NCBI GenBank assembly: GCA_949358305.1
Contig: OX442314.1
Span: 16,368,001-16,432,000 of the forward strand
DNA from: Strigamia acuminata
Lineage: Eukaryota
DNA: 64,000 nt
Direction: 5' to 3'
A program made the translations under genes and the position numbers. Within the stretch, counting starts at the first letter, position 1. The number at the start of each line of letters is the position of its first letter. The notes below the pieces were generated by a model. The model was not told the DNA's origin and did no database searches. It saw nothing but the letters and a program-made list of their open reading frames with translations. This document shows positions 30,780 through 64,000 of this stretch, one piece after another.

Positions 30780-30962
30780 AAAGTGTTATTTATTTATTTA
30801 TTTATTTTGTAAACAAAACTGTTACATATTTTTATTATTATTATATCATTATCTTATCATGTAATTTATTTTGTAAATGAAATTATTATTATTATTATTA
30901 TTATTATTTTTATAAAATAAAACCATTATTATATATATTATCGTGTCATTCTTTCACAAACC

Positions 30963-31349: not shown

Positions 31350-31401
31350 ACAAGTGCATATGCAATGATCGAAATATATCTTTATTATTTGTGTATACAA
31401 A

Positions 31402-32496
31402 TTATAATGGTGGGTTGTCTCGTAAGTCATCAGCGGGAATCCAGGAATTAAATTCATCTCCATAACCCATCCACTTTACAAAATATAATTTATTCGCACC
31501 TTTGCCTTTAGACTTTAATACTGTTTCTACAGCATACTCCGCATCCTTGGGTTTATTAATTTTCTGCAACTCAAATTCATAAAATGTACCGAGTAAAGGT
31601 TCATCATTGTAATCTTTAAGCATATAGACAACTTCTGGTGGTCGGATTAATCGATTGGCAATATAATAAATTTGATGCGAATAGCTTCCCCTGTATCCCT
31701 TTCGGAAAACCACTTTTGATTTTGATATTCTAACACCATCACCAATATTAAACTTAAATTTTTTATGTCTTTTATTTATTGTATCACCATATAAGTGGTA
31801 AAACACTGCCGGTTCTTTCTCTTTCGTAACATCAACAGGTTTCATTCCTAATGTTCGATGAACGCTATGATTATATGAATCAATAAATGTTTGCAGTTGG
31901 TCAATATATCGATGTCTGCCGGTATATGTGAAATAAGTCCACATTTTCTGCTTTATGGTCCGATTTAATCTTTCACAAAGTGAACATTTAATATCATCAT
32001 TTTCACTTGTAAAATGTTTGATGTTATTTTTTAGTAAGAATTCCTGAAAAGCTTTATTTAAGTATTCTTTTCCCTTATCGGTCTGTAGAAAAAGGGGTTT
32101 AGTCTTGGCACGTTTTAGAATTGTTTCAAAAGCTTTTATAATATGTTGCGCAGACTTTGTTGGTAAAGCTTCAATATACGCATATCGTGAAAATACATCA
32201 ATGACAGTCATTAAATATCTATTTCCATCATTTTCCTTTGCTATGTTTCCAACTTCAACCAAATCCGATTGCCATTGGTAATTAATAGATGGTACAATAG
32301 TCTTAGAGCGTTGAAACTTGTATCGAACTGGTTTATGTAAGGTATATGAGTCTAGTCCTTGTAACCAATCTTGAATCTCCTTTCTGGTAACTTGTACCCC
32401 CCGATTACGTGCAGCATGGAACAATTTATCTCGACTACTAAATCCGGCAGGATTTCTTGGATTAAAGTAGATATCTTTCAATTGTTGCTCTGCCAT
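31402..32496 (-). CDS. Retroviral-like (rve) DDE integrase with C-terminal chromodomain
   Basis: WQSDLV, VIDVFSRY, LQTDKGKEY, CERLNRTIK; chromodomain YAVETVL..YFVKWMGYGDEFNSWIPADDL. Confidence 0.97.
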   Translation of the reverse strand: MAEQQLKDIYFNPRNPAGFSSRDKLFHAARNRGVQVTRKEIQDWLQGLDSYTLHKPVRYKFQRSKTIVPSINYQWQSDLVEVGNIAKENDGNRYLMTVIDVFSRYAYIEALPTKSAQHIIKAFETILKRAKTKPLFLQTDKGKEYLNKAFQEFLLKNNIKHFTSENDDIKCSLCERLNRTIKQKMWTYFTYTGRHRYIDQLQTFIDSYNHSVHRTLGMKPVDVTKEKEPAVFYHLYGDTINKRHKKFKFNIGDGVRISKSKVVFRKGYRGSYSHQIYYIANRLIRPPEVVYMLKDYNDEPLLGTFYEFELQKINKPKDAEYAVETVLKSKGKGANKLYFVKWMGYGDEFNSWIPADDLRDNPPL

Positions 32497-32544
32497 ATGT
32501 TTTTCTAACTTTGTTCTATGCTCCTAGTTATACTGTTTATTTCT

Positions 32545-33429
32545 TTATTTTTTTTTCTTTTTTTGTGAACCGGAACTTGGTGTTTTATATTTGAATAAAC
32601 TCTCGTCTTGATCTCGTTGAAATCTTAAAGATTTGTTTGGTGTTCCGTAATGTGCCCAAGTGTTCTCTAAGTCTGACAGCTCTTGATCTTGATCTGATAG
32701 TGTTTGATTATTGATGATGGAGTCATTTCCACTCAATGACTCTCTATGAATGTCCCTAGTAATTGTGGGAGTTGAAGTGCTCATCGGTCTAATTAATTCC
32801 TTTCTTAAATTCTTGTTTATAATGTATTCTTTTGGTACATTTGAATCAATCAAAATTTTAATATACTCTGACTGACCAATCGGAATTACATTTTGCTTCG
32901 GGCGGTTTCTTATGGTATAGTTTATAAGATCAGCTTTGGTTGTATTTGGAATTTTTACTCCATCTATAATCATTTCCGATAGATTGCTCCATTTCAACCT
33001 TGGATTCAAATTCATAACTTCCATTAACGCAATAGCTTGTTTCTTTTGATCTTTTGACATTTTATTCAACATTATTTTATCCAATGGTTGAAGAACAAAT
33101 GGCGATTGAGATGTGGATAAGTGCGAAACAATTGGTGGTGGTGATTGAGGTGGAGATGCGGATTGAGTTGGAGGTGATATAGTAACAGTTTTTGGTGCAT
33201 TTAATTGTTTAATTAGCTTTTGTTTAAAGTTTCCAAATTGCGATTGAAGTGTCGATATAAGTTTAGCTTTCATTTCATCATTCAAGTTTGCATCATTGAA
33301 AATTTCCTCTATTGACGATTCAATCTTTTGCAATTTTTGATATTGCGGATCAATATCATCATAGTTCTTTTTCGAATATTGTAAAGATGACATCATTTCC
33401 TGCGGTACTAAAACCATTTTCCTAGCCAT
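32545..33429 (-). CDS. Polinton protein of unknown function (coiled-coil N-terminus, Pro/Ser linker, basic tail)
   Basis: 294-aa intronless ORF starting MARKMVLVP; LKWSNLSEMIIDGVKIPNT-type block; lies between the core-protein and integrase genes; overlaps the upstream stop codon. Confidence 0.75.
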   Translation of the reverse strand: MARKMVLVPQEMMSSLQYSKKNYDDIDPQYQKLQKIESSIEEIFNDANLNDEMKAKLISTLQSQFGNFKQKLIKQLNAPKTVTISPPTQSASPPQSPPPIVSHLSTSQSPFVLQPLDKIMLNKMSKDQKKQAIALMEVMNLNPRLKWSNLSEMIIDGVKIPNTTKADLINYTIRNRPKQNVIPIGQSEYIKILIDSNVPKEYIINKNLRKELIRPMSTSTPTITRDIHRESLSGNDSIINNQTLSDQDQELSDLENTWAHYGTPNKSLRFQRDQDESLFKYKTPSSGSQKKKKK

Positions 33430-33757
33430 TTTGTTTACTAATTAGTTTACCTACTAATGCTCCAATAATTGGGGCGAGTAGTTGCGGTAAAAATCCACCA
33501 GTTTGAATGACCAAGTTCCGTCTTTGTTTGAATGAAGATGTAGGAGTGGCCAATTTTCTTAACAACCTTCTCTTTCGATAAAGTGATTGTTTCTGATTTG
33601 CTCCTAACTTAATTGTACCTTTTATAATGTTTAAACAAATTTCACAGATGGTTTTACAGAAATCATCGTTAGAATGTTTGAGAAAATCCTTGATTTGTCT
33701 CTTATTTAAATCGGGAATGGCCCGGAGCACATTGGCGTGACGTCTTACTCGTTTCAT
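33422..33757 (-). CDS. Small basic Polinton virion/core protein with an amphipathic C-terminal peptide
   Basis: Arg/Lys-rich; ICEICLNIIKG; QTGG followed by FLPQLLAPIIGALVGKLIS. Confidence 0.8.
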   Translation of the reverse strand: MKRVRRHANVLRAIPDLNKRQIKDFLKHSNDDFCKTICEICLNIIKGTIKLGANQKQSLYRKRRLLRKLATPTSSFKQRRNLVIQTGGFLPQLLAPIIGALVGKLISKQNG

Positions 33758-33766
33758 TGGTGGAAT

Positions 33767-34366
33767 CTATATGTAAACTATAGTATATTCATCCGGAAAT
33801 ATATTAGTCTTCACTCTTTGATCTTGGGGTGTATCCGGTTTCAAATCAATTAATAAATACCCAAAACTTTGCGCTGTTGCATCGTTAAATGCTGATATGA
33901 AAAATTTACCTCGCTGTGGGAACATTTGACTCCCTACTTTTGCGATTTGATTCATATCCCTTGGATTTCGAAAAAGGATTAAATAGTGACTATTTAAAGA
34001 TAAAGTTCGTTGATATTTGCTTTGATGAAATATGTTTTGGCATAAATAAAATACACTAGTGCTCGTATGGTGCGAATATTTAGTCCACAATAACCCAATC
34101 TCTTGATTTAAATTTTCCATTTGATCGTCAATGATGAAAAGCTTTCTCGTTGATGAATCCAAAGTCTTTAAATTGGGTAATCCTTCGTGGAACTGCACAT
34201 TGGGAAATTCGATATACCACTGTTGCCATATTGAATAGTACCAGCAAATATCTTGTGGGGGTGGATCAATCATTTTACTCGCATTTCGGATAATTTTCTT
34301 ACATATCTCCGTTTTGCCCGTACCCGAACTTCCAGAAATAATAGCAGTAAATGGATGATGAAACAT
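33767..34366 (-). CDS. A32/FtsK-like genome packaging ATPase
   Basis: Walker A GSSGTGKT, Walker B LFIIDDQ, SHH, LSLNSHYLILFRNPRD, FGYLLIDL. Confidence 0.95.
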   Translation of the reverse strand: MFHHPFTAIISGSSGTGKTEICKKIIRNASKMIDPPPQDICWYYSIWQQWYIEFPNVQFHEGLPNLKTLDSSTRKLFIIDDQMENLNQEIGLLWTKYSHHTSTSVFYLCQNIFHQSKYQRTLSLNSHYLILFRNPRDMNQIAKVGSQMFPQRGKFFISAFNDATAQSFGYLLIDLKPDTPQDQRVKTNIFPDEYTIVYI

Positions 34367-34419
34367 TGTTCATATAAGAGGTGATGTCACCTCAATGATG
34401 CAATCAGAAGTGAGCAGGC

Positions 34420-35550
34420 ATGGATCCGGAACAGAGTTTCTATGTGAGTCTTCCATCAAATAGCAGCTTAGATTATTACCCGAATAATACATTGACGGAA
34501 TTTCATACGCAATTACCATCATATATTAATTTAGATGAAAATTGGGAAGTGGGTCTGGTTGGATTCCTTTATCCAAGAAGCTGGAGTACTGCTCTATTGC
34601 CCCGAGGTGCCGATTTTCGAATACTGAAGAATGAAGTCAATGCAATCAAATTTCCACCATTCAAATTTGTGGATGCATCCCTACCGCAGGATAAGCTAAT
34701 ATCCGAGTTTCTTAACTTTTTAAATAATAATTTAACATCTCCAACCAAGAAAGATGAGAAAGTTAAAGATCTTGACAAAGCATTGCAAAAATTAGGAATT
34801 AAATTTCACTGGAATTCCACTCGTTTAAGATTTGAAATAATAATTATGCCTAAGTTTCAAGTCATGATCCCGCAGAGGCTGGCATATGTGTTAGGTTTTG
34901 TGAAAGATGAAGATGATGATTTTTACGCTGATGAATCCAAGACGGCTCGTGATTCTCCACGTCTCACACCAAATCTTATCAATGATAAAAATTGGAATTT
35001 ATCAATTGAAAAGGAGACTGATGGTAAACAGAAACAAAGCTTGAAACCTGGAAATTATTCGGGACCTGATCAATTAGTAGATGCTTTAAATCTTAAAGCA
35101 CTCGTAGTTATTGATAAAGCACCATTTAGTTTTAATATATCATCAAAGAAAATTGAGATTAACTTGCCAATTAACACCAAGTTGGTTCTTGATAAAGCCT
35201 TGGCATCAACTCTCGGTTTTAATGATTTGCGTGTAATTACAAAAACAACAGAAGCTTTTCATAAAATGGATGAACAAGTTGGACTATATCATATGTACTT
35301 GTATTGCAATCTAATACAACCAAACATTGTTGGGGATACTTTAGCGCCACTGTTAAGAATAATACAGATTCAAGGAAAAGAGCGAGGACAATACATCTCC
35401 CAAACTTTTGAAAATCCACATTATAAACCGCTGGCAAAATTGCAATTTGAATCCATACAAGTGCTTATAAGGGGTGACACCGGAGAAAAAGTACCATTCG
35501 AGTTTGGACGTGTCGTTGCAACGTTACACTTCAGGAAGAGATTGGATTGA
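34420..35550 (+). CDS. Minor capsid (penton-like, PX) protein
   Basis: FYVSLPSNSS..YPNNTLTEF..WEVGL N-terminus and MYLYCNLIQPNIVGDTLAPLLR..PHYKPL..LHFRKR C-terminus, typical of Polinton minor capsid proteins. Confidence 0.88.
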   Translation: MDPEQSFYVSLPSNSSLDYYPNNTLTEFHTQLPSYINLDENWEVGLVGFLYPRSWSTALLPRGADFRILKNEVNAIKFPPFKFVDASLPQDKLISEFLNFLNNNLTSPTKKDEKVKDLDKALQKLGIKFHWNSTRLRFEIIIMPKFQVMIPQRLAYVLGFVKDEDDDFYADESKTARDSPRLTPNLINDKNWNLSIEKETDGKQKQSLKPGNYSGPDQLVDALNLKALVVIDKAPFSFNISSKKIEINLPINTKLVLDKALASTLGFNDLRVITKTTEAFHKMDEQVGLYHMYLYCNLIQPNIVGDTLAPLLRIIQIQGKERGQYISQTFENPHYKPLAKLQFESIQVLIRGDTGEKVPFEFGRVVATLHFRKRLD

Positions 35551-35554
35551 CAAG

Positions 35555-36037
35555 ATGAGATTTCACTATGAACTAAACCCTCAAATCTGCATGGATAGAT
35601 ATTGCTCAAATCATGCGCAAATAGGTGGAGCAGATCTTCCTATATTTGTAGGATCTCGCTATCAACAAGGACATGGTTTGGGTTCACTTATAAGTGACGC
35701 ATTTCGAATTGTAAAGCCTTTTGTGAGAAGTGGAGCGTTGGATGCAGCAACGTATGGTTTGAAGAGAGGATTAGACGTAATTTCCGATATGCGTGTAAAC
35801 AAGAGAAAATTTGGAAATGCATTTAAAGATCAGGTTGTTCGAACCAAATCGGATTTTTTAAAAAAGATTGGTGTACAGAAAGGAGGCAAACAAAAGCGGA
35901 TGGATGGTAAACAAAAGAAAAGACGTGTAACCAAACAAAAGAATCAGTCTAAGAGACGAACTCGACCAAAGAAGAACGTGCGTAGGAAGTCCTGCAAAAG
36001 GAAAACTTCACTTCTTGGACCTGACATATTTGATTAG
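35555..36037 (+). CDS. Basic core/virion protein (PZ-like) with putative protease sites
   Basis: QIGG, F.GSRYQQGHGLGSL, QKGG, very Lys/Arg-rich tail ending DIFD; lies between the penton and major capsid genes. Confidence 0.8.
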   Translation: MRFHYELNPQICMDRYCSNHAQIGGADLPIFVGSRYQQGHGLGSLISDAFRIVKPFVRSGALDAATYGLKRGLDVISDMRVNKRKFGNAFKDQVVRTKSDFLKKIGVQKGGKQKRMDGKQKKRRVTKQKNQSKRRTRPKKNVRRKSCKRKTSLLGPDIFD

Positions 36038-36039
36038 CC

Positions 36040-37377
36040 ATGCCGCAATTTCCCCATGAATCATCTGCCGAAGGCGCGACTCCAGAACTAGACATTTTTG
36101 GATTACCACTCACACAAATAACAGTGGAAGATAATTATTGGAGTGAATACCATCCAATTACAGCCGTAACTGCAGGACAGCCATTAGATTTTTCAATCAA
36201 GGGTACTGCTGATACGTACATTGACTTGAGTCAAACATACTTGTTACTAAATGTAACTGTAACCGATGGTGCTGGGGCTGTAATTACAAAAACAGCTAAG
36301 GTTTCTCCTACAAATTTATTCCTACATTCATTGTTCAGTCAAATAGATGTTAGACTAAATGATAAGCTAGTGTCAGCTTCCGATTCAAATTATTGTTATA
36401 GAAGTTATCTCGAAACAATTCTCAGTTTTTCAAATGATGCCAAAAAGAGTTATAAAACAGTGGAGATGTATTATGAGGATACAGGAGGATCATTTGATGA
36501 TTTAGATCCAACAGTAGCAGATTTTAACGAGGAGTTTGGAATTTATAAACGATATCATCGACTCATGCAGGATGGTGATTGTGGAAAATTACAGATGTTT
36601 GGAAGACTTCACTGCGATATCTTTTCTCAACCACATTATCTCATAAATAATGTTGACTTGCGAATTACACTTACTAGACAAAATGATGCATTTAGTTTAA
36701 TTTCAAAAGAGGCAGGGGCGGCCTATAAAACAGTTATAAATGATGCAACTTTATTTGTAAAAAAGATAGTTCCTAGCGCTAGTGTACTCTTAGCTCATCA
36801 TCAAGCATTAGAGCAACGTAATGCGAAATATCCCATTAGAAGGGTAGAAGTTAAGACATTTACAATTGCTACAGGATCGCAAACTGCTATGATTGATAAT
36901 GCATTTCTCGGTCAATATCCATCCCGATTGATTATTGGTCTTGTGAAAAACACTGCCTACTGCGGATCATATGCCAGTAATCCGTATAATTTTGAAAACC
37001 AAGGAATAAATTTTCTTCAAGTATTTTTGGATGGAAAAGGAGTACCAATGAGTCCATATAAGCCAGATTTTGCAAAAGGACAAGCAGCTCGTGAATTTAT
37101 TACCTTATACCAAACTATGAATAGAGCAGATAAAGATTTAGGATTAGGCATTTCGTATACTGATTATTGTTTAGGCGGAAATGTTTTATTTGGATTTGAT
37201 TTAACGCAAGATGCATCCGCCGGTCAACCACATTTGAATTTAGTAAAACAAGGAAATGTTAGGATTGAAATGAGATTTAATAAAGCCTTAACTGCAACCA
37301 TAACCGTATTAGTACTGGCGGAATATCAATCCATACTGGAGATTGATAGAGCGAGGAATATCATTACTGAATTTTAA
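36040..37377 (+). CDS. Major capsid protein (double jelly-roll, PY)
   Basis: 445 aa; ELDIF..P.TQ, YIDLSQTYL, NLFLHSLFSQIDV, GRLHCDIFSQ, G...NPYNF, LFGFDLT, GNVRIEMRF. Confidence 0.93.
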   Translation: MPQFPHESSAEGATPELDIFGLPLTQITVEDNYWSEYHPITAVTAGQPLDFSIKGTADTYIDLSQTYLLLNVTVTDGAGAVITKTAKVSPTNLFLHSLFSQIDVRLNDKLVSASDSNYCYRSYLETILSFSNDAKKSYKTVEMYYEDTGGSFDDLDPTVADFNEEFGIYKRYHRLMQDGDCGKLQMFGRLHCDIFSQPHYLINNVDLRITLTRQNDAFSLISKEAGAAYKTVINDATLFVKKIVPSASVLLAHHQALEQRNAKYPIRRVEVKTFTIATGSQTAMIDNAFLGQYPSRLIIGLVKNTAYCGSYASNPYNFENQGINFLQVFLDGKGVPMSPYKPDFAKGQAAREFITLYQTMNRADKDLGLGISYTDYCLGGNVLFGFDLTQDASAGQPHLNLVKQGNVRIEMRFNKALTATITVLVLAEYQSILEIDRARNIITEF

Positions 37378-37385
37378 CTCAAGCT

Positions 37386-37910
37386 ATGAACACGCTCCAA
37401 ATAACGGAGATTTTATCTAAGAATTCAGTGACGAGGCAAATTTTTAAAGGTGTATATCCAATTGATTTGCTATCCTCATCGCAACAAACAAACAAAACAT
37501 GCGCGTTTGTTGTAAATACTCATCCCCATACAAAACCAGGCGAACATTGGGTAGCATTGTTTCGAGATGAGAAAGTACCCGGTGCGATTGAATATTTTGA
37601 TTCGTTCGGTAAACCACCAGCGAAAGAAATTACTGCTTTTATTCAAAATATTGGATGTAAACTAACCAACAGGATTACTCAAACCTATCAATCACCGTGT
37701 AGTCTCGCATGTGGATATTATTGCATTTATTTTATTTATAATAGGTGTAAAGGAAAAAGCTTTGATTATATAAAAAATCAATTTAATCCAAGAAATCCAT
37801 ATTACAATGATAAAAAAGTTACAAAATTTGTTAAACATATTTTTAATTTTAAGATGTCAACATTGTATGATAAAAATTGTATCGTACAAATAAGTAAAAC
37901 AAAGAAATAA
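37386..37910 (+). CDS. Adenain/Ulp1-like cysteine maturation protease
   Basis: Catalytic H-D-C set with the oxyanion Gln: GEHWVA, EYFDSFG, YQSPCSLACGYYC. Confidence 0.95.
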   Translation: MNTLQITEILSKNSVTRQIFKGVYPIDLLSSSQQTNKTCAFVVNTHPHTKPGEHWVALFRDEKVPGAIEYFDSFGKPPAKEITAFIQNIGCKLTNRITQTYQSPCSLACGYYCIYFIYNRCKGKSFDYIKNQFNPRNPYYNDKKVTKFVKHIFNFKMSTLYDKNCIVQISKTKK

Positions 37911-37939
37911 AGTAATTGTTACAAAATCTGGTGTTTCTA

Positions 37940-38266
37940 TCAACCTGGTGTATCTAACCCATAGATGGATTTATAAATCAACCACTCTTCATTCAGTCCT
38001 TTTTCAAAAGTAATTCTCATTAATGGACAATAGGCATACCAAGAATAATGTTCCAAAAGAGGTATGTCACCACGTTTCCACTCTTTTAATCGACCGAGAC
38101 AGTAGACGCACTCAACATGATCATTTTCACCCAAGTATTTGAATCCAGCACGGGCTAAGGTGGAAGGGTCGGCGATGTGTCTAGAAACAGGCCAGTTGCG
38201 AAAGGTTTGCTTCCGTTCCCGGATTCGCCGCATCATCTCCGTTCGCATTTTCATTTCCCGTTCCAT
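37940..38266 (-). CDS. Single BIR-domain (IAP-like) protein carried by the Polinton
   Basis: RKQTFRNWP..LARAGFKYLGENDHVECVYCLGRLKEWKRGDIPLLEHYSWYAYCP contains the C-x2-C..W..H-x6-C zinc-binding BIR pattern. Confidence 0.92.
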   Translation of the reverse strand: MEREMKMRTEMMRRIRERKQTFRNWPVSRHIADPSTLARAGFKYLGENDHVECVYCLGRLKEWKRGDIPLLEHYSWYAYCPLMRITFEKGLNEEWLIYKSIYGLDTPG

Positions 38267-38870
38267 GAAGGAGGGCTTCAAGATCGTCGAGATAAGAATG
38301 GTCTTGAGTTTCAATACACCACTCCTTAAAGCAAAGACACTCAGCTTGAGGACAGTGCATTAACTTGGAGGGAAGTAGGGATTCATGAAGGTGACATAAA
38401 GGTTTTGAATCAGGATCAAGATTAAAATGAAGGTCCTGATATTTTGGACATCCCAATGATTCCAGGTCGAGGTATGGAATGTCACATTTGATTAACCAAT
38501 TTTTTTCAATTTGGCCTCCTTTGAATGCAATAATTGGTCTGTTGGCTTCCTGAACACAATTTATATGTAAAGATGTGAGGATAAAAGGAATCCAGCTTTG
38601 AGGTAGATCATCAGGACCATCTTCAAACTTCATACCGTGGATATTACGTTTTAACCAAGCAGCAACTTTTTGCCATTTTGGTTCTAGTTTGTCAAATTGT
38701 CCAACACGAAAGTGATAACTTAAAGTAGAATCCTTGTATAGAAAACACACTCCGAGCTCCTTGAGTAGAAAGTCGGGACCAAACTGGAATCCCTCAAAGT
38801 CAATAATACAACCTACGTTTTTTAATTGTTCCGAATTCATTCTAAAACACGAATTAAAATAAATATTCAT
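38181..38870 (-). CDS. DEDD/DnaQ-like 3'-5' exonuclease-fold protein
   Basis: IIDFEGFQ..LLKELGV, LKRNIHGMKF, AFKGGQIEKNWL, DLESLGCP, CHLH..HCPQAEC. Alternative start at 38840. Confidence 0.7.
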   Translation of the reverse strand: MNIYFNSCFRMNSEQLKNVGCIIDFEGFQFGPDFLLKELGVCFLYKDSTLSYHFRVGQFDKLEPKWQKVAAWLKRNIHGMKFEDGPDDLPQSWIPFILTSLHINCVQEANRPIIAFKGGQIEKNWLIKCDIPYLDLESLGCPKYQDLHFNLDPDSKPLCHLHESLLPSKLMHCPQAECLCFKEWCIETQDHSYLDDLEALLHGTGNENANGDDAANPGTEANLSQLACF

Positions 38871-39559
38871 TTATAATAATATCATTAAATAAATGGAACT
38901 TACTTTGAATGATGTTTCTAAAAGTTAAGTTGATTCGCGGATGAAGTGCAGAAATTTGCTTTGGAAGACTGTGATACCAAAAACGGTTTGTAGGTTGGTG
39001 CATTAGCAGAATGCTACCGTGTTCCAACGCGAGAGAAATCGGCTTTGGTGGTAAGACTGAGTTGCGAATAGTATACTTTCGCTTAAGAGACACGTGACGA
39101 AGAACAAAGTTTCTGTTTTGTCCTAGAGACAGGCTCGCTATTGGTGCGTTTGGATGAAGTCCCACCTCATCGTCTCGATGTTCACCAATAGTCTGGTTGC
39201 CATTTGCATAACGATTAACGAGAACAAAGTTAAATTCATGTCCGGTAACAAACTGAACGGCATCTCGTAAATCACGCAAAAGAGGAGTCCAAGTTTTAAC
39301 CGGTAAAGTATTACCAGAAAATGAATATTTCAATCCATCATCACCAAATGCAACTTGTTGTCTCGGTATATTGATCCACTTGCCATAAATCTTGATTTGA
39401 CTCACAAGTCAGTCTACCTGTATAGTATGTGATTTCATTTTCCAGCTTTTGAAATGTAGAATCAGCTACTTCTTTGTTGAAAAGAAGCCCATACTGCAAG
39501 TGTAAATCCTGCTTGGGAATATCTTTCCAACAAACAGGCTCTATTGTCGTCTTCTCCAT
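38854..39559 (-). pseudogene. ALKBH2-like AlkB dioxygenase with a frameshift near 39401-39412
   Basis: 5' ORF gives LFNKEVADSTFQKLENEITYYTG. The 3' ORF, in another frame, gives QIKIYGKWINIPRQQVAFGD..FNFVLVNRY..GEHRDDE..WYHSLP..RINLTFR. Confidence 0.88.
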
Positions 39560-39626
39560 GTTTTTTCATCCAAAAGAAACATCAGCTCGGTATATATAGC
39601 AGTTAACCTATTCTGCTGTCCAATCG

Positions 39627-39940
39627 GAGACATGTCTAAACTTGCCCCCCCAAGCGGTTTCAACAAATTATAGCAGAGGACTCCTCCCCTTTGCACCGCT
39701 CACTTCCTGTTTTATCCCCCCTTCCAAACAGTGCCATTGCTGAGACATGTTGAAACTTGTCTAAAATGGTTTCAACGAATCATAGCAGAGGAGACATTTG
39801 CACCACTCACTTTCTGTTTTATCCTCCCTTCCAAACAGTGCAATTGATGAGACATGAAACTTGTCTAAAATGGTTTCAACGAATCATAGCAGAGGACAAC
39901 GTTGCACCGCTCGCTTCCTGTTTTATCCTCCATTTCCACT
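39627..39940. repeat. Three imperfect tandem copies of a ~107-115-bp unit upstream of the AlkB gene
   Basis: GAGACATG recurs at 39627, 39742 and 39849, each followed by ggtttcaac..atagcagagga..ttgcacc.ctc.ctt.ctgttttatcc. Confidence 0.9.
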
Positions 39941-40140
39941 AATATAACACAAACACCCTTATTACAACTTAACTTATTTGTTAAAGAAATTAATGAAAGA
40001 AAAAAGATGTATTCTTATTCAAACAAATTTTATTTATATAATTAACACAAAAAAAAAAAGAAATAAGTACAAAAAAAAAAATTTAAACTAAAGTATACAA
40101 TTTCTATTCTACCAATACAAATAACAAATTAACTATAAAT

Positions 40141-40797
40141 CTATTCATCATCATCAGTATCGACAGGTACACTGGTAGGTTTTGAATCGACATCCTCATC
40201 AGAAGAATCCACAAAATGCACACCAGGAATGGGTCTCTGATATGGTTTCTTCTTCATTTGCTTTCTCTCCTTTTTCTTTTTTAAAACAATTGGAGCTTGA
40301 GATGTGGTCGGAGTAACAAATGAACTTGCAGTTGTTTCCTCGGGAATAGCTGGAAATTGAAGGTTGCTCTCTTGCAACTTTGACAGAGCTTCATCGATGC
40401 CCGAAAATATGGATGATCGCTGCTTCTTGAGTTGACGCCATTGTTCATACGAAAGCAGAATAAACTTCTCTGGCGCAAATGAATGACATATCATCAAAGA
40501 TACATCATCAGTTTTCGACTTGGAAATAGTGACTAAAACACCACCTACACACTCAATGGTTGATGATTTCTTGGTTTTTAAATTCGCAATTTCACTCGTT
40601 ATCTGCTTCCAATGTTCCACAAAATCATAAAATGTCTTAACGTTCATGCACATACCATCACGAGAGGGATACAGCTTTCCGTTCGGGTATGTCAGAAATC
40701 GTCTTAGGTGGATGTAGACTCCAGCTAGAAATGGATTGACTTGACAATAGATCTCCCCACCAAGAGAGTAGATCCCGCTGCTTGAAGTAGTAGTCAT
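40141..40797 (-). CDS. PC4-like ssDNA-binding protein (probably two PC4-like units) with basic NLS and acidic tail
   Basis: YSLGGEIYCQV..GVYIHLRRF..LYPSRDGMCM; second unit ending FILLSYEQWRQLK; KKKKERKQMKKKP; DTDDDE tail. TATAAA at 40845-40850 favours ATG 40797. Confidence 0.7.
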   Translation of the reverse strand: MTTTSSSGIYSLGGEIYCQVNPFLAGVYIHLRRFLTYPNGKLYPSRDGMCMNVKTFYDFVEHWKQITSEIANLKTKKSSTIECVGGVLVTISKSKTDDVSLMICHSFAPEKFILLSYEQWRQLKKQRSSIFSGIDEALSKLQESNLQFPAIPEETTASSFVTPTTSQAPIVLKKKKERKQMKKKPYQRPIPGVHFVDSSDEDVDSKPTSVPVDTDDDE

Positions 40798-40922
40798 GGC
40801 TTGTTTGTGAAAGAAATGGTGAGTATCCCAAAATGCGAGTTGCATTTATACAGGATAACTCCTCCCCTTTGAACCGCTCACTTCCTGTTTTACCCTTCCT
40901 TTCCATCACTGACATTGATGAG

Positions 40923-43313: not shown

Positions 43314-44594
43314 ACACCTAAATCCTTACTATGTAATTGAAAATCGTTAAATTGGTTTATGCTAATGCTGAAACACTAGTCATGTACAAAGAAAATAAAA
43401 GTATGTTTACCGAACTGAAATTCTCTTTCAATGAAAACACGCAAATCCAGTGGACTATAAATTATTTACAGCACACATTATTCAAACTAAACCGCCTCTA
43501 AAAGCCTATAAAAGATGTTTATCTTAAAATTCAAACAGATGATTAACAATTTATAAACTGCCACATTACAGCAGACTATAAATAGACATTCATACTAAAA
43601 TAGCAGTTTCACATAGAATCATCTATTTATTTAGAAATCTTCTAGCTATAGATTAAAATGTACAAGTAAAATAAAATGTTGAAAGTAATTTAGATGTTTT
43701 TAGGCCGCTTGAAATTGAGTGCAATAAATTCCTACAAGGTCCGACGAATGTTTAGATACGAAGTCGCCACAAATTCATACAAATTCTCTTGTTTGATCGA
43801 CACTATGCCCTAGACATGGAAGTTTCACGTAAGAAATTTCCTAAGACTCAATTTCTGATTTGTTATGAAATCGAGTACTAGTAGTATTGGTTAAATCAAC
43901 CCAAAGTGCGATCTTTGCGTTACAACTTCGGATTGATGACATCATCATCGAAGATATAAATAACAACTTCAAACATTATCACCATATCCAATGCATATTC
44001 TACTTTCATCCGAGAAAAGATAACCATTTCCCAGTCTTCCATTGTCCACGTTTCATATGTTTTTGCCCAGGTTAATCTCGTTCTCTGCTGTCTTAATGTT
44101 ATAAAAAGTACAGACGAAATAAACTTCCCTTCAGTTAAGCTTTTTTAAGTTTATATACCAATGGCATCAATCTTGAGTTTCTTGACTCGGTCTTTCGTTA
44201 TCCTAACAACAGTATTAAAAGATAGACCGGGCAAATAATGATAGATAAACTTAAAACAGCTAAACAGAAGGGAAGTATATTTTGTCCTCGACTGTACAAT
44301 AAACAAAAAAACAAATCGAAAGTTGTACTTTTCCTGTATTTAATATTCAGAAATTAATTGTGACATTATTTATTGACCGGCTCATATTCTTTGAAGACTT
44401 CAAACATAATTACACCAAGCACGAAAGCTAACGATTAGAAATATTCTTTCAATCCATTACAATCTAAAAATCAAACTTAGTACATCGTGTAATAAATTAT
44501 TATCTAATAAAATATTCATTCACTCAAATAAAACAGTCGTGCCGTACATCAAGCGTCCATTTACCGCAACAGATTCGATCACAAACTATCAACC

Positions 44595-47591
44595 ATGGTC
44601 AAAGCAAGAAAAATTATCAAGCAACTCTTGCACAGCCACGAGAAAAATAATTGGACATCTACAACCGGTTTAAGACAGGTGTCTAATCCTAATTATCCAA
44701 TTTGGTTGCGTGGCGTTTGGTTGATGATTTTCATCACGAGTTTAGCTCTATGCTCGTATCAAACGTACAATAGAGTAATGCATTACCGATCGGGTCCAAT
44801 TGCAGTCGATGTTCGATTCGTTGAAATCACCAGATTTCCTTCATTCACGGTTTGTTCGCAAGATACTCAAGAAATGATAAACTACAAGCAAAAACATTTT
44901 CTCGACGACAACATATTTTCCACATTTACTTGCATGAATCAACTTTTGTATGTGATGGATCAAGTCCAGAATGTAAATGTAGATGAGTTGTGGAAACTAA
45001 CCAATACGGCTAACATCGTCTCATCGGCAGTATTGAAACGGGTAAGATACAATCGTTTTCTATTTTAAAAATTTTGCATTCGAGATTTCTCGTTTAAAAT
45101 TGCTGTGTGGTAAATCCAACAAAAGTTCGCCAAGTAAACCCAGCTCATACTATTTTTTTAGTTAAATAATATCACAACAGTTACTCCAAAGCAAGTAATT
45201 GCACCAATGGGAATATGTTCAGCATTTCATTTAGGTATGGTTAACTATCTTTTTTCAAATTAATAGTTACGGTACAATTAATTTTTAATACGTTGTAAAA
45301 CCCAGATGGTGAAATGAAACATCCTACTTCAACTCAATTTATTCTGAAATTGGCAAAACTACCAAACAGCTGTGAAACTTCAATAATTTCAGTAAGTAAC
45401 TTAAGTTAGTTTATAAAATTAAATTAAATTATGTTCTTTTTAGGGCAGTGCACATGAACCTGGAGAACATTCACCAGACATTCGCAATCTATTTGGATTT
45501 TCTCCATTTCAAATCATCTACATTACTCTAGTCTACAAACAGGTATATTTCCTACATTTAAATTATGACCATAAACTAAAATCGTCATTTTACTTTTATT
45601 TTCCAGTACATCTTTTTAAATTCTACAAAAAATCCCTGTGTGGATCATACGACCTACAACGAATGCCAGTTAAAATGCTTATTGAAAATGTACACCAAAC
45701 ATCAATTTCCATGCAGGTATTTATTTTAAAAAATCAAATAATTAAATCCAACACCACTAAGTTTTCTCTAGGTTCCCATTCATGCCAAGTAAATTAAATT
45801 TAGATTTATGCACCACAAAAAAAGACGTTACCAAAGAATTGTACGCCAAAGCAACAAACACCTTCATCAGCACAAATCCAACACAAGATTGCAACTGCCT
45901 TCGACGTTGCAACAGAATCGTTTTCGAATTCTCTCTAACCAATAACGACATGCATCAAAACGAAACAACATTCAACTTGATTCTTAGAAACAAACAACTT
46001 TTATCAGTAGAAGAGCGGCTTGCCTTCGATTTCATATCCCTACTCGGAGACTTTGGCGGCAATTTAGGCTTATATTTCGGATTATCCATTCTCTCTGCAG
46101 TTTACTACGTGCAACAATACATAGAATGCCTCGATGCCCGAGCTAAAGTCAACAGTCTGCGGAGAAAACATCCAAAAGCCTACCGTTTTCTCGCCCACAT
46201 TTTCAACAAAGAAATGAAGAAAAGAGAGAAAAATATCTTTTCCAAATACACATTTCAAAGACACCCTCATTGCCTCGTTTCACTTTTGCTATTGGTTGTC
46301 ACAATTTATTTACTAACGATCCGCGTATTATTCTACATTTCTGAACCAACCCAAGTAGTGATCAACGTTGTCGAAAACTCGACCATGAATTTCCCATCAC
46401 TGACACTCTGCGGTGAAAGCAGGAGCTATTCCAAACTCAGAAAAGCATATGCAAAAAAAGACGCAACAAAGCACTACTGCGAAGCCAACTTTTGGGATTT
46501 CTTTGACAAAAATCTAACCGCTCAAGAGATATGGGCCTTCACAGATATCACTGACGTAATTTCTAACAGAACCGAAGAATTTGCAAAGGTATATCACAGC
46601 CGTCTGCAACTTATTTTTTTTTACTAATAAAACACCCACCATTTCCACACAACAGGCGAATGTTGGTATTTTATCACTAAAAGCAGAGAAACAAACAGCG
46701 ACCAATACCCCAACAGGCCGCTGTTCACATTTCAAAATAGGTAAATAATTTCTAACAAAAAATAAATAAATAAATCGATCATCACATTAGGTGAACACAC
46801 GTTTGCTGGAACCGCTACACTGTTTGCCATTTTGTTGCAACAAAAACAGTGTCAACCAGAAGCCTTATCGTACATTACGGAAAACGATATGGAGCCAAAC
46901 ATTATTTACCGCACTCCTGTAATCGTCGGTGGAAATGCCGCTATCCTTCTTACAGCCAAAAAGGTATTACTTTACACACCCCAATAATCTAAAAAAAACC
47001 AAAGATATTTAAATATTTAGCCTAATAAGTCTAATTTCCTAGGTGACTTACCACAAAAGCTACAATAACCCATGCGTAAGTCCTAAAAGCGCTTTAAAAT
47101 GTGAAACTCGGTGCCTACAAAGAAAACTGAACGAGAAACTGCAATGCAGGTAAGCCTACCAAAATTAATTCTATATAAAAAAAATACAGAAGATAATTGT
47201 CTTCAGACTCCCATACATGAAAAACATTCGCTATCCAATGTGCACCTCTTCAAAATCAGCGCTATTAGCCCAACTTACATTTAAAGATGTTTTTCTAGAC
47301 AAAAAATCATGTAATTGTACTAAATCTTGCACCACCGTTATTTACGACACAAACTGGTATTTCGAACCCCATGATCATTGGTTAATGACAATGTACGTAA
47401 CGATTTTTATTCACAACACAGTCGAATATATCAACGAGCTACCTCATTACACACATGTCCAATTAATGTGCGATATTGGCTCCATCTTAAGTCTCACTCT
47501 GGGTTTATGCATTCCAGTTATATTTCTCACTTTGCAGAATATTACATTTTCCACTTGCAGTAAAATACTTGCAAAAAAACACTCGAAATAA
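44595..47591 (+). CDS. Second DEG/ENaC gene encoding two tandem channel subunits in one reading frame
   Basis: Unit 1: WTSTTGL, TM1 VWLMIFITSLALCSYQ, FPSFTVCS, MGICSAF, CNCLRRC, LLGDFGGNLGLYFGLS. Unit 2: TM1, FPSLTLCG, TGRCSHF, CETRC, CNCTKSC, LMCDIGSILSLTLGLC. Confidence 0.87.
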
Positions 47592-47693: not shown

Positions 47694-48479
47694 TTACATT
47701 TTAAAACGCTTGGAAATGAAAGAAGAATCGTCTCCACTAGATCTTTTTCCCAAATTGTCAAATGTGTGATTTCCTGCATCGACGTGAAATTCCTCGCCCC
47801 AATCCGGAGACGTTATTGTTGACATACGACTCGAATTTCCTGCACCGTTATAAAATCCACGGCACCGAGCCGGTTTTCCTGCATCATTGTACAATTCCTG
47901 GCACCAAAACGAAAGCTCTATTATTGGCACATGAGTCGGATCACCATATCGAGTAAATAGTTCGAGTAAATAATCCGCTCTGTATATCCCAGGTGGTCTA
48001 GCTTGCGCAAATTCCTTAACGGCTGAACGTACGTCCCATCCCTGCTTCTCTACCAAGTAAGCAACAATCAAGAATCCAGTTCTATTAAATCCGTGGGTGT
48101 CATGAATTCCTATAAGCTGCGACGTGTGTGCCAATATAAAGTTACTACAGATATTAATAAATTCACGCGTTTCATTTAAATCCGGGCATTCGTCGTTCCT
48201 TCGACATGAAAGTCTCAAGTATAATATATCCCGAGATTCAACCTCTGCTTTGTCATAAAATCCGTCGGTGTTCGTCAAATTAATCCACAGACCCAAATTT
48301 GCTTCATAACTGAGCATGACCATAAATCTGTGTTGTACTATCATTGAAGGTGTGAATATATAGTCAGGAGGGACTTGATTTGATTTCAAAGGCGTTTTAA
48401 ACGCAAAAAAACGTTCGCCTACTAAACGAGTTGCTGTGTTTGGACACTGCAACCACCTTTGAGGAATATCAGTAGACAT
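47694..48479 (-). CDS. Intronless RNA 5'-triphosphatase domain (RNGTT N-terminus-like) with catalytic Cys replaced by Asp
   Basis: IPQRWLQCP, RFFAFKTPL, LGLWINLTNT..FYDK, IGIHDTHGFNRTGFLIVAYLVE, FAQARPPGIY. No guanylyltransferase domain follows. Confidence 0.88.
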   Translation of the reverse strand: MSTDIPQRWLQCPNTATRLVGERFFAFKTPLKSNQVPPDYIFTPSMIVQHRFMVMLSYEANLGLWINLTNTDGFYDKAEVESRDILYLRLSCRRNDECPDLNETREFINICSNFILAHTSQLIGIHDTHGFNRTGFLIVAYLVEKQGWDVRSAVKEFAQARPPGIYRADYLLELFTRYGDPTHVPIIELSFWCQELYNDAGKPARCRGFYNGAGNSSRMSTITSPDWGEEFHVDAGNHTFDNLGKRSSGDDSSFISKRFKM

Positions 48480-49253
48480 CTTACGACTTAAACACGACAC
48501 CAAATGAGTTAAATGCTCGTTTGTACTAAAATGCCACGTCTAACTTCTATATAACCTTCAATTCGTGCTGCAAAGTTGCTGATGTTGGAATTCTCGGATC
48601 CGGAACAATACGACAAGTGATTTTATTCAACGAAATACACAGGTTAAGTACTACAATAATCAGCCCTGATTGGCTGCTACAAAAAACGTTCGCTGGACGT
48701 ATTGGCGGCCGACATACACAATGTCCAACAGCTGATTCGTTGATAAGTTAATGATATTCATGTACGAAACGTCTCAAGGCAGCATAATTTGTTTTAAATT
48801 TGTTTTTATACGCCTAATTTACAATTTTATTATTTCGTCAGTGTAAAATGCCAAAATTCACAACATTTTTTTATATTTGTATTACTCTCTTTACGATGTT
48901 TAATATTAAATATTAAATATTTCAATTTCAATACTTCAATTTACGATAATTAGACAATTTTAATAATTATGTCGTATTTTATCTATTCCACCAACGTTCT
49001 GTACGAGACTTTACATTTGGATAGTCTTATTCGTCTAAAATAATTCGTCTATAATAATTTGCCACACAAAGTTTATTTCAACCATAATTATTTGAAATAT
49101 TAATTAAAAACCTATTACGTGTCGAATATATCATGATTTATTTAATATTAATCTAGTTTACAGCTCAGTAGTAAATTGTAATTGATTACTGATGTCTGAT
49201 AAAATTCGACTCGATGTATATGACATGCGAGTAAAATCGAATGCTTCGACCAA

Positions 49254-59379: not shown

Positions 59380-60253
59380 ATATTATCATTACTCACGCCA
59401 TTTTTTCTAGTTCCCCCAGTTCTTTGCTTATCTTTCGAACAAATAGTATTGTAACACAAAGAGAATCTCTTTCATTGGGAAAGTAATTTGGGTTTCTGTA
59501 ACCTGTACCACATTATTATATCTTGTTTCACTGTAAATGTGTAACTGTATAAAAATACCATAGGGTTTGAGAATCAATAAAAGTCTAGTGTTATTTGCAG
59601 CTTTGTATTTTAACAAGCCATGGGCATGTAAGTGGGTTGATTAACCCACTGCCATAAGTCTTTACCTTAATTTTAAAACAGTCGCCATCTTGAATTCTCT
59701 TGAATTCGCTTAGCTGAGAAGCCAACCTCCTGTCGGTCCCTCATCAACCTTGAATTTTTCCCGTCACAAATGTAATAAATATCACCAATAAACCTCACGT
59801 TTGCTTTCATTACGCTTAAATTTGATGTGGACCGGCCTTTAGAACCAGGGCCGTCAGAATTGGGCCATCCAATTCCAGTTTGAATCACAAATCCGACATT
59901 TCCCGGCAAATCGACTCTTATTCGCTAAATAAAACGAACAAAATTAAGGGGAAAATGAATGAATCAAATTCACAACAGAAAAACAAAAAACGAGAATGGT
60001 TGCTCTCTCGAAATGATTACTCACTTTGCGTTGATTGGCTGCGATGCGAAAGGGGAAAATGGCTGAGTGCCAATTTCAGAAGAGCACAATCACGATCAGT
60101 TAATTCCGCTCGTTGGGTTGACATCTATATTCTATACCTACTTACATTTTATCCTCTTTGTATCGGGAAACAATTTCGCAATGTATGATGTTTAAATTTT
60201 CCACTGGGGTGGAAAACATTTAATATTATACCGTTTGTGTTTATAATCAGATT

Positions 60254-61011
60254 ATGGATGAAAACTACAATCGACAAAGTTCCGATGACGAAGGAGACGA
60301 ATACGAAAATTACGAACAATATTATTCTAGTAAGTGTGTTTGTGTGTGTGAAACACGTGATACAACACTTGTTTTCCTCGTATTTCTGTTTGGATTTTTA
60401 ATTATTTACTTTTAATCAACAGACATTAATTTGGGTCCATTAGGAGATATTCTAAATGAAATCAACAGCGGTTAGTAATGTGTAGAATTAATTTTCTATT
60501 TCTGTCATTATTTTCCATTAATAGGAGCGAGTGACACGATAAAATCGACATTTATTACTCAAGTTGGTAAAATTAACCACTGTGAAGTAGGAAACAAGAC
60601 TACAACCAATTATTATAATTCCTCTCCTCCGTCACAAAATATTAATACCGGTACCTATCAGATAATATTTGTAATTGCTACAGCAATGAGTTTGGTTTAT
60701 AGCTCAATGCTCGTTGTACAGATGAGAAGGATTTGAGTGAGATGATATCAACTGTGAGTCGAAGAATTCGAGGCAAATGGAGCGAATTAATTGAGAAACT
60801 TGGCGCACAAAGAGACGAGGTAGAAGACATAAGGACGCAGATCATGAAGAGAGAGCACAACTGCCAAGGTCGAGTCGAAGAACTACTACAGAAAATGGCG
60901 AAAACTGCTTTGGTGACATGGAAAATTGAAAACGGCAAAAATGCCACCTGCAATAACTTGATTTTAGCACTGAGATTTGTCAACGCGGATTATATAATTA
61001 ATGATGAATAA
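60254..61011 (+). CDS. Death-domain protein with a possible cRHIM-like motif, four exons
   Basis: Exons join in frame; the last encodes VSRRIRGKWSELIEKLG..EVEDI..LVTWKIENGKNATCNNLILAL (death-domain pattern). Exon 3 has INHCEVGNKTTTNYY. Confidence 0.7.
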
Positions 61012-61291
61012 TCAATTATATTGAATGTATTACGTATTAGAATATACCGGTATTTGTAAAATCCAATCAAAAACAAAAACTGTTTCAAATATTGAATATT
61101 TTGTAATTTTATACCTACAAACAAACAAACTGTCAAACCTCACCAGTATTTATGCTGGTAAGTGGTAAATATCTTGAAAATAAAATTTGTCCAAGTTATT
61201 TTGTCATTCGAACAACTCAAAGCGGGTAGCGACATCTATTGATGGTACGGAGAACGTGGCGTAACTGCCTTTATATTCAGAGAAATTAAAA

Positions 61292-62403
61292 ATGGATTCA
61301 TCTGTTTTGCTAACGCTGCAGTTGTTATCCGAGACACAAAAGCAAGAAGATAACGACACGGATTTGTTTGCAGTAATATCAGCAATATTAGCCCTTCTCC
61401 CTGATTCTGATTTACAATTTTTTGACGGAGACGAGATTCTCGCGCAATATTCCTTGGATGATTTTCGTGCCACTTTCGGCCTGCATCGGAACACTTTCGA
61501 TCTTCTTAACGGTAATTACCAAATAATTCGATTCGTTACCTCAACTACAATCCATTTTTTACAGGTCTATTTCACCGCACACAGACAATCAAGGTAGAAA
61601 ATCCAGTACATCAATCTACTGGACTGACGACGCAACTCCTATCGACGCTTTGGTACTGCGCCAGCACCGAACCGTTAAATGTAATCGCAGCGAATTTTGA
61701 GATGAACGAATCGACATTTTTATATTGTATCCGTAATGTCGCCTCTTGGATACTCAGAGACGTGAAGAAAATATTTTTAAGATGGCCGAAAGGGAAGCGA
61801 TTAACACAAGTCCTGGAAACGTATAAAAAGCAGTCGAATATGCAAGGCGTGATCGGTGCACTTGGAAGCATTCAAGTCGGGATAAAAACTCAACCTGAAG
61901 ATCATTCCTACTTCAAAGATGAATCGATGCAACAAGCTGCTATTCTCCAAGTTGTTGCCTTACCGAATTTCATGTTGAGCAGTGCGTTTTGTGCTTCTCC
62001 AGTCGCGGGGACTGTGGAGGAAGTGTTTGAAAGTTCCCCCCTGTGTGAAATCATTGACACGAATCCAAGTTTACTTTTTCCAGACGATTGTAAATTAATT
62101 GGTGGAAATGTGTACGCGAAGGACCCTTGGATAGCCGTGCCCTTCGTTGATCGAGGATACTTAACTCGCGATCAAAAGGCGTTTAATAAGCGCCACGAGA
62201 AAATCCAATCTATTTTGATTAAATCATTAGAACTATTGAGTAAAAGGTTTCCGAGACTGCAAATGGTGGATTTGAGAAAGACTGAATGGGTTACGGATTT
62301 GGCCGTTGCTTGCTGCGTGTTACATAATATTTGTTGCTTGACCGAGGATGAAATTGAACAATTCATCGACGAAGGAATCGAATTGAAAGAAGAAAACAAT
62401 TGA
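61292..62403 (+). CDS. PIF/Harbinger transposase-derived (HARBI1-like) protein lacking the DDE triad; intron 61512-61564
   Basis: DFRATFGLHRNTFDLL, TLWYCAS, FLRWP, GVIGALGSIQV, ILQVV, LIGGNVY, FNKRH, KRFPRL, ACCVLHNIC. Confidence 0.85.
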
Positions 62404-62509
62404 GACATTAAATGATGGAAATTGTAAACAATTAGCTCTGTTTTGTTTTTAATAATATACAAATGACGTTATTAAACGAATAAAAGACATAAATATAACA
62501 AAAATCATT

Positions 62510-63730
62510 TCAATTCTTTGCAAGATTTGTACAAATAGTGGTCAATAAGTCAACTTTCTTTTTTTCCATCTCCATGATTTCTCTGTGTCGCTTTTGTTCG
62601 TCTTTACGTTTTTCCTCTAAATAATCGCGTAGGAAAAGTAGAACTTCCATAGATTTGGATTTCTTTAAACGCTTTTTAACTGGATTTCCCTCGGAATCGC
62701 TGTCCTCATCGTCGGTGAACGATGTCGGCTGATTTAAGGGTGTGCTGGGCGTATCAGGAATGCGGTTTCGAGCTAAACTCATCATCACTGCGGTGGAAGA
62801 TCCAAGTAATTTGTCAATAACCTCGTAAAACTTAAAAGCTGTTTTCCTGTTATCGCCCTTCGCTTCACGGTGTTTTGCCTTCCTATACGCTTTCAGTAAA
62901 CTTTTCCATTTGTTTGTCACATGCTCTGGCGTAACCTAAAGTCCAAAATTAAAAATTCAAAAACATGAAACTTTGTAAGGATTATACCGTAAATGCTCTC
63001 GCACAACACCCGCGCTCTATTGACCACAACTTAGATATCCCCTGCATCCGCATACGAAATTATTAGGCGATAATTAAAATAAATTTTCAACCTCTAAAAG
63101 TCGATGTTTGCATATAAAAATGCATTTTTTTCACATAGAAAATGTCCAAAAATCTATTTTTACTTAGAAAAGTACATTTTTAAGGCCAAAAATGCAATAA
63201 AAATGTACCTTTCTAAGTAAAAATAGATTTTTGGACAAAAATAAATGCATTTTTGCACTTTCTGGCCACATTATAAAGGATACCGCGTTCAATGAAAGCA
63301 TTTACGGTAATTAATTACCTGAATTCCTTGCTTGCTCATATCATTAGCAATTTCTTCCCAGACCTTCTTCATTTTATATCCAGGATTTCCAAACTTATCT
63401 TGATGTTTTTTGCACGCAGTGATTAGACATAACGTTTCTTTGTCGGTCCATCCTCTTCGGTTGGGATTATTGCTTATAACTTCACCTTCAAAATTTAGAT
63501 TCACTGCACTTAATAGAAATAATACTTGCGCATACATATAAATATAGGCTACCTTGGAATGACTCGGTAGTAACTTCATTTGTACCATCATTTATTTCGT
63601 CAGCGGCCTCTATCGCTGTGACAGCAACTTCGGCTGTCACGGTTTCTTCATCTTTTTTACAAGTGTGCTGCAAAGCCGCATTACTGTCCAAAAAATATTG
63701 TAGGCATTCCTTGCAAAAGAACAATGTTGT
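62510..63730 (-). CDS. Myb/SANT-like (MADF/trihelix) DNA-binding protein with C2HC finger and C-terminal coiled coil; 5' exon uncertain
   Basis: CKECLQYFLDSNAALQHTC; WTDKETLCLI..KKVWEEIA, spliced to VTPEHVTNKWKSLLKAYRK..FKFYEVIDKLLG; RHREIMEMEKKKVDLL. Confidence 0.8.
63117..63256. repeat. Inverted repeat (foldback element) in the Myb/SANT gene intron
   Basis: tgtccaaaaatctatttttacttagaaaagtacattttt pairs with aaaaatgtacctttctaagtaaaaatagatttttggaca; outer aaaaatgcattt arms. Confidence 0.75.
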
Positions 63731-64000
63731 CTGGAAGGAAATTGCAAATATCCATTAGGGCTCGGGGAAAACATAATTTTTTTTTAAAAAAAGCTGTGCA
63801 ATAAACGTAGAAATTCAATAAGTAATAAAAAATAAAGCTTCGGTTGCATATTACAGTGAAAGCAATTCGGTTTTGAATGATCCAAAACGAAATTTGTTTT
63901 CACGGTCATCATCGTTCGTTTTACTAAATTTCAACTCGCAGAACTAGATCCTTTTGATCCATCACAATTATTACAAGCACAGTTGAGTACAGACGGTAAG

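Follow-up and report, generated by a model that had tools for sequence, protein, structure and literature searches.

A convergent PIF/Harbinger transposase and Myb/SANT gene pair in the centipede Strigamia acuminata, probably co-domesticated in situ

The window analyzed in this study is a stretch of 64,000 nucleotides from Strigamia acuminata (assembly GCA_949358305.1, contig OX442314.1, positions 16,368,001 to 16,432,000 of the forward strand). Its DNA is eukaryotic with short introns, and it opens with a PLD3 gene whose nearest match is from Strigamia maritima, with 95–96% identity in two intron-free segments. A transposase gene on the plus strand and a Myb/SANT gene on the minus strand are arranged tail-to-tail between positions 61292 and 63730. 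The pair sits 3' of a BART-domain gene, which we take to be CFAP36-like, and of a death-domain gene. The features of the locus are listed below, with the supporting evidence in brackets; X1 to X6 denote the six runs whose contigs were searched.

60224..61011, plus strand: death-domain gene, upstream host neighbor and synteny anchor outside the module (PF00531, E = 3.5e-7; introns skipped in X4)
61292..61511, plus strand: transposase exon 1, residues 1–73 (X4 contig 26 covers 61289–61510)
61512..61564, plus strand: transposase intron, 53 nt, GT..AG (skipped by X4 contig)
61565..62403, plus strand: transposase exon 2, encoding the HTH and the RNase H-like DDE_Tnp_4 core and ending with the stop codon at 62403 (PF13359)
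61864..61866, plus strand: first catalytic position, G174 for D, codon GGA (alignment)
62104..62106, plus strand: second catalytic position, G254 for D, codon GGA (alignment)
62218..62220, plus strand: third catalytic position, I292 for E, codon ATT (alignment)
62404..62509, no strand: 106 nt separating the stop codons of the two genes, with AATAAA/ATTAAA hexamers on either strand (sequence inspection)
62510..62935, minus strand: last Myb exon with third helix (W131), basic NLS-like KKRLKKSK and C-terminal helix (PF13837)
62936..63318, minus strand: Myb intron, 383 nt, GT..AG (skipped in X4)
62985..63309, no strand: multi-copy MITE-like insertion in the 383-nt Myb intron, 13-bp inverted ends TACCGTAAATGCT (contig depth, sequence)
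63319..63503, minus strand: Myb exon with the first two Myb helices (W78, W108) (PF13837, E = 1.3e-9)
63504..63552, minus strand: Myb intron, 49 nt, GT..AG (skipped in X4)
63553..63730, minus strand: Myb exon encoding an acidic stretch and a motif that resembles a zinc finger, C-x2-C-x12-H-x-C (zf-MYST below the cut-off, E = 0.01)

Several other features of the window were recognized by eye. Exons like those of a Rel/NF-kB (Dorsal-like) gene lie at 5044–7727 on the plus strand. A Maverick/Polinton-like element at 26232–40845, identified from its ORFs, encodes a long DNA polymerase B with N-terminal zinc fingers and an integrase with a chromodomain-like end, besides ATPase, capsid-like, protease-like, BIR-like and AlkB-like frames, and is flanked by clusters of DEG/ENaC-like channel exons (20165–25405 and 44532–47591). 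An intronless ORF on the minus strand (47694–48539) resembles the mRNA capping enzyme's RNA triphosphatase domain and is possibly a retrocopy. The death-domain gene itself is small and spliced; it is presumably IMD/RIP-like and contains a possible RHIM-like stretch, ITQVGKINHCEVGN, a label that we assume here. Its last exon is fast-evolving, with 23 replacement and 15 synonymous differences among the 38 changes listed for organism B.

The transposase gene (61292–62403, plus strand) has two exons and an uninterrupted frame of 352 amino acids, in agreement with the preliminary description of this locus, which had called the ORF intact. At the end of exon 1 lies a helix motif, F..F(R>G)L..F..L, in degenerate form. 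The protein matches PF13359 (DDE_Tnp_4) above the Pfam cut-off (E = 4e-8), and this profile was matched by 128 of 128 aligned rows. The structure model of exon 2 (pLDDT 90) comprises an HTH and an RNase H-like core; its best fold match was Tn5 transposase (Z 9.1, rmsd 5.8, 230 aligned), followed by piggyBac (Z 8.2). No Foldseek match reached E ≤ 0.001, and PDB sequence searches yielded nothing relevant.

A search of representative proteins returned 1731 matches at E ≤ 0.001, the best 150 of which were 23–39% identical to the transposase, and a word-indexed search returned three proteins only (25–26% identity). In the alignment of the window protein with these 153 homologues, D, D and E occupy the three catalytic columns in 115, 128 and 108 sequences, respectively, and 92 rows have the full triad. 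The window transposase retains none of the three residues; it has G174, G254 and I292 instead, and the motifs GALGS, IGGNVY and LIKSL occur exactly as first described. Neighbors of the active site are lost as well (H177Q, the G-x-P-G-S-x-x-D motif, R288 and K299), and the structural positions W147-P148, N281, R301-F302 and C-x-L-H-N are retained. The triad codons differ from those for D, D and E by 2, 2 and 3 bases, so that the loss is no recent point mutation; it was read in the window's species. Conservation of the gene pair as such was seen among close relatives only. Complete loss is not unique to this protein, as several other homologues also have no triad residue left. The C-terminal tail is short (24 amino acids after LHN) and lacks the G..KR..I motif, which 74 of the 134 long-tailed homologues carry, and we therefore regard the transposase as remodeled. 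Taken together, the model and the alignment predict a catalytically dead transposase with an intact fold. A substituted triad was seen in about 50 of the 153 homologues, including scorpion, frog and argonaut proteins, hinting that there may be many more undescribed animal Harbinger domestications.

The Myb/SANT gene consists of three exons on the minus strand (63730–63553, 63503–63319 and 62935–62510), which together encode 262 amino acids without a start codon. Both halves of the domain match PF13837, one above the cut-off (E = 1.3e-9) and the other just under it (E = 9.7e-6), and all three tryptophans (W78, W108 and W131) are retained. A K-K/R-x-K/R NLS-like motif occurs in the Myb protein and not in the transposase, and the C-terminal helix is common to Harbinger Myb proteins. 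In an Atlas search with the Myb exon, PF13837 clusters were found at 0.88, which serves as a lead only. No Myb homologue was found among longer proteins, to which the protein-collection search was limited, and this result is accordingly weak.

Position 63730, the outer limit of the pair in the preliminary description, is a splice acceptor and not the start of the Myb gene; the first in-frame methionine of the available part falls within the Myb domain, at residue 104. No upstream start exon was found within the window. A probable short exon on the plus strand (63941–63996) lies just upstream of the Myb gene, so that the Myb start exon would be very close to it, overlap it or lie past the window end. 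Candidate first exons with an ATG at 63962, 63912 or 63909 were rejected, having weak donors and no read support.

The Myb gene had been placed about 106 bp from the transposase on the opposite strand, and the distance between the two stop codons is exactly 106 nt. Given the hexamers on both strands, the 3' UTRs of the two genes would overlap. As noted previously, no TIRs were seen: the best inverted matches between the flanks scored 11 and 13, within the range of shuffled sequences (9–13 and 10–14, 30 shuffles each), and a PIF-like TWA+RG end was absent from the available flanks, the right one being 270 nt long. The power of this search is limited, since inverted arms around both genes were detected in only one of four element loci tested. 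The MITE-like insertion in the larger Myb intron contains an internal hairpin (63143–63237, 40-nt arms) and is unrelated to the Harbinger element; Rfam matches at 63141–63238 were all under gathering scores and reflect this hairpin. If its ends are read as a TA duplication followed by CCGTA, the insertion presumably resembles Tc2/pogo-type elements.

Both genes of the pair appear to be transcribed and spliced. Contigs of X4, a single run of low depth, skip one transposase intron and two Myb introns as well as four stretches of the death-domain gene, and X4 was taken as RNA-derived because of these seven skipped introns. In X1–X3, the summed depth over both coding regions equaled the depth of one spanning contig, and the intronic repeat reached up to approximately 8-fold depth in X1 and X2 and 22-fold in X3; contig depth is not copy number, and the evidence on copies is the absence of further records at 85% identity. 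Copy number had been proposed as a check on domestication; at ≥85% identity, the contigs of X1–X3 contained neither coding region a second time. Dispersed similar copies were likewise not seen, X5 and X6 having one record each at 80% identity, and the contigs of all six runs contained no related element at 80–85% identity or more. This search covered records that passed filtering, at or above 80–85% identity.

Synteny and selection, two further checks proposed, were examined in two related species, B (X5) and C (X6). In each of them the last exon of the death-domain gene, the transposase and the last Myb exon lie in the same order on one contig; the synteny concerns the left side of the pair. 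In X5, the compared piece (61214–62939) contained 11 gap letters representing eight indel events, and all eight lay in non-coding sequence, which makes up 241 of its 1726 bases (p = 1.4e-7), with no indel inside the coding sequence of the pair. X6 showed no depth loss over coding bins, in which insertions are not placeable. The pair differed between X5 and the window at 149 of 1715 aligned bases, compared with 45 of 291 in the neighboring death exon (p = 8e-4) and with 15 of approximately 48 synonymous sites in that exon (Fisher's test based on its 38 listed changes; p = 1e-5). The transition/transversion contrast between pair and death exon was not significant (p = 0.095). An indirect bound, used because the 40 listed of 304 rows include none in the pair's coding sequence, places pN/pS of the pair in X5 at 0.14 at most, or at 0.4 at the low confidence limit. 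Among the 28 of 33 differences listed for X3, the transposase had six synonymous changes and one replacement (p = 6e-4 to 6e-3), and the Myb gene had two synonymous changes and no replacement. These patterns, although indirect as a measure of selection, indicate that the pair is probably under purifying selection. The protein collections, which include a Strigamia maritima protein, yielded no orthologue of the transposase or of the Myb protein.

Elements of the presumed parent type were found in metagenomes, which were scanned with a profile of 11 transposase relatives carrying catalytic residues where covered. The scan returned 51 loci; with the window transposase itself as query, it returned no relative. 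The window Myb domain alone matched eight of the 51 loci at E < 1e-3, all downstream of the transposase on the opposite strand, and its best match to Myb ORFs beside DDE-intact transposases reached E = 8e-18. A Myb profile detected 11 of the 51 loci at E < 1e-5 in the same position and orientation (9 of the 25 with at least 1.5 kb downstream plus two shorter ones), several of which form one clade, so that these loci are not independent. An upstream Myb homologue was found in none of the 18 loci with at least 1.5 kb upstream; one exceptional locus, L035, had a plus-strand match to the Myb profile (E = 5e-6, 37 columns). PF13837 scored above the cut-off in 8 of 10 tested metagenome Myb ORFs, all three catalytic motifs were present in 8 of 10 Myb-carrying loci checked, and five metagenome Myb proteins align with that of the window over the Myb domain, the basic motif and the C-terminal helix. 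The DDE-intact loci L003, L005–L007, L009, L011, L028 and L033 share with the window the same two genes tail-to-tail and a homologous Myb protein, but keep the GAIDG, GDxAY and ERAF-type motifs that the window transposase has lost. L014 has long inverted arms around both genes, unlike the window pair; they lie at 10–394 and 6135–6254 and offer a usable reference for Harbinger element ends. Both the tail-to-tail arrangement and the Myb architecture as a whole are those of the parent element type.

Pairs of this kind are already known (APLG1-APM1, DPLG7-DPM7, LPLG2-LPM2 and HDP1/HDP2). Four adjacent insect co-domestications and a nuclear-import model are reported in PMC9710019. Like the window pair, APLG1-APM1 and APLG2-APM2 of Anopheles, DPLG7-DPM7 of Drosophila and LPLG2-LPM2 of Lepidoptera combine adjacent transposase and Myb/MADF genes, and the insect pairs resemble the window pair in their apparent origin from one insertion, single copy, absence of TIRs (for the window pair, from the available flanks) and purifying selection (PMC9710019). 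APLG1 and APM1 are 97 bp apart, compared with 106 nt here, and APLG1, judged by eye from its sequence in the supplement, is likewise without D, D and E; the two genes are annotated as one dicistronic transcript, whereas the window pair is convergent (PMC9710019). That survey, as far as its accessible parts show, is restricted to insects, while the host of the window pair is a centipede.

In Arabidopsis, HDP1/HDP2 likewise combine a transposase without the full DDE triad and a Myb partner that keeps its tryptophans; this is a plant pair for which binding and membership in the IDM1 acetyltransferase complex are experimental, whereas the window pair is known from sequence (PMC5339849). ALP1/ALP2, also from Arabidopsis, resemble the window pair in combining a Harbinger nuclease that is catalytically dead with a partner derived from a Myb protein, but ALP1 has lost two of the three triad residues rather than all three, and ALP2 no longer has its tryptophans and lies apart from ALP1, whereas the window Myb protein keeps them and the genes adjoin (PMC7282668). 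The partners in the plant pairs bind each other via the C-terminal region of the Myb protein, and the pairs become part of a histone acetyltransferase complex or of PRC2, in line with the earlier statement that domesticated plant pairs act in chromatin regulation (PMC5339849, PMC7282668). BPLG1 of cockroaches and termites is, like the window transposase, an arthropod domesticated PIF transposase with a degenerate triad and a short C-terminal tail; the accessible parts of PMC9710019 report no Myb gene beside it, whereas the window transposase has one. BPLG1 is described there as cockroach-specific. In our trees, Zootermopsis BPLG1 (P0282, which matches by eye the sequence in the supplement of PMC9710019) grouped with triad-degenerate proteins of Anabrus and Gryllus (Orthoptera) and Timema (Phasmatodea) with an SH-aLRT support of 94. 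This group (P0117, P0133, P0143, P0144 and P0123/P0282) reached 99 when three Logan proteins were added, and BPLG1 may thus be a Polyneoptera-wide or older domestication.

Both genes are of Harbinger origin, and we consider it probable that they represent the two genes of one PIF/Harbinger transposon, were co-domesticated in situ and likely form a two-subunit regulator. This reading, which the preliminary description had put forward, is favored because the genes are spliced, found in no second copy and syntenic, their frames are kept, synonymous changes are in excess, and the parent layout is seen in DDE-intact elements. That the pair has been domesticated, taken alone, is held with high confidence. 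The two genes could nevertheless have been domesticated and be no longer partners, remaining neighbors only through one insertion and serving separate roles, since transposase-only domestications and pairs that later separated are reported in insects (PMC9710019) and the short tail without the G..KR..I motif points to a remodeled transposase. We regard this as unlikely: the Myb protein has kept a C-terminal helix that aligns with those of element Myb proteins and that mediates binding to the partner in ALP2, HDP2, NAIF1 and the Ping Myb protein (PMC5339849, PMC7282668), and the NLS-like motif is confined to the Myb protein, as in 33 of 42 insect cases (PMC9710019). Retention of the three Myb tryptophans and of the full transposase fold, with catalysis lost, would also suit a Harbinger repressor kept by the host, in which the Myb protein occupies subterminal motifs and the dead transposase poisons active complexes. 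Such a role appears improbable, as the six runs contained no related element within the identity range searched, the nearest proteins (the best 150 of 1731) are distant, and ALP1/ALP2 do not cross-bind to Ping proteins, which suggests diverged surfaces (PMC7282668).

It is very improbable that the pair is an ancient arthropod one whose orthologue is BPLG1 or another known domesticate of insects, and hence not independent. FastTree placed the window transposase beside the clade holding BPLG1 with a support of 0.45, and both proteins have G for D at the first catalytic position. The same G, however, occurs in 20 of the 153 homologues, and in an IQ-TREE analysis of 45 rows (approximately 40 of the 153 homologues, 23 with a degenerate and 16 with an intact triad, five element loci and the window protein) the window transposase sat on a long branch in no supported set, outside the clade supported at 99 and with a warning that long branches meet. 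A profile made from the BPLG1 clade also placed it only at rank 106 of 146, which argues that it is not BPLG1, and no Myb partner of BPLG1 is described in the available text of PMC9710019. On this rank and the lack of a supported placement, a BPLG1 orthologue was rejected, and the independent origin suggested previously holds with regard to BPLG1, the protein collections containing no orthologue. Independence from DPLG, APLG, LPLG and HARBI1 is inferred from their reported young, clade-restricted ages (PMC9710019); names were looked up for 20 of the 153 homologues, and none was identified as DPLG, APLG, LPLG or vertebrate HARBI1. Least credible of all is a decaying or non-autonomous Harbinger copy without host function. 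The element layout is intact, distant orthologues are missing from the protein collections, and a TIR might lie beyond the window end, 270 nt away; but both frames are open despite triad codons several changes from D, D and E, indels in X5 avoid coding sequence, polymorphism in X3 is mostly synonymous, and the pair has diverged less than the neighboring host exon.

If both genes were indeed co-domesticated, a working partnership of transposase and Myb protein is likely by analogy with the known pairs, and a role as chromatin adaptor is slightly favored. The model is drawn from HDP1/HDP2, ALP1/ALP2 and Harbinger3_DR, the latter as cited in PMC9710019. The Myb protein would bind DNA via the domain with the three retained tryptophans and, using its NLS-like motif, would bring the transposase into the nucleus by way of its C-terminal helix; a host chromatin complex would be scaffolded by the dead transposase. 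We infer such a DNA-targeted adaptor because the pair retains what the model requires, namely the Myb tryptophans, the NLS-like motif, the C-terminal helix and a dead transposase with its predicted fold. A complex prediction with the exon-1 peptide, the exon-2 protein and the last Myb exon gave a score of 0.00, with the alignment unused and the partner fold uncertain, and counts neither for nor against a partnership.

A literature search, which covered few subscription journals, found no myriapod Harbinger co-domestication. Only tentatively, we suggest that the pair may be the first such case, young and confined to Strigamia-like centipedes, and that it may be a chromatin regulator in which the active site has been erased and the Myb gene has gained a zinc-finger-like exon absent from parent elements. 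The pair reveals no new mechanism, as this route to new genes is already known from insects, plants and vertebrates. It would extend the repeated co-domestication of PIF/Harbinger genes from these groups to myriapods, and it lends support to the model in which a single insertion supplies both genes, the parent layout being visible in DDE-intact relatives. As a compact and apparently lineage-restricted pair, it may offer a clean case for determining which host complex animal pairs join.
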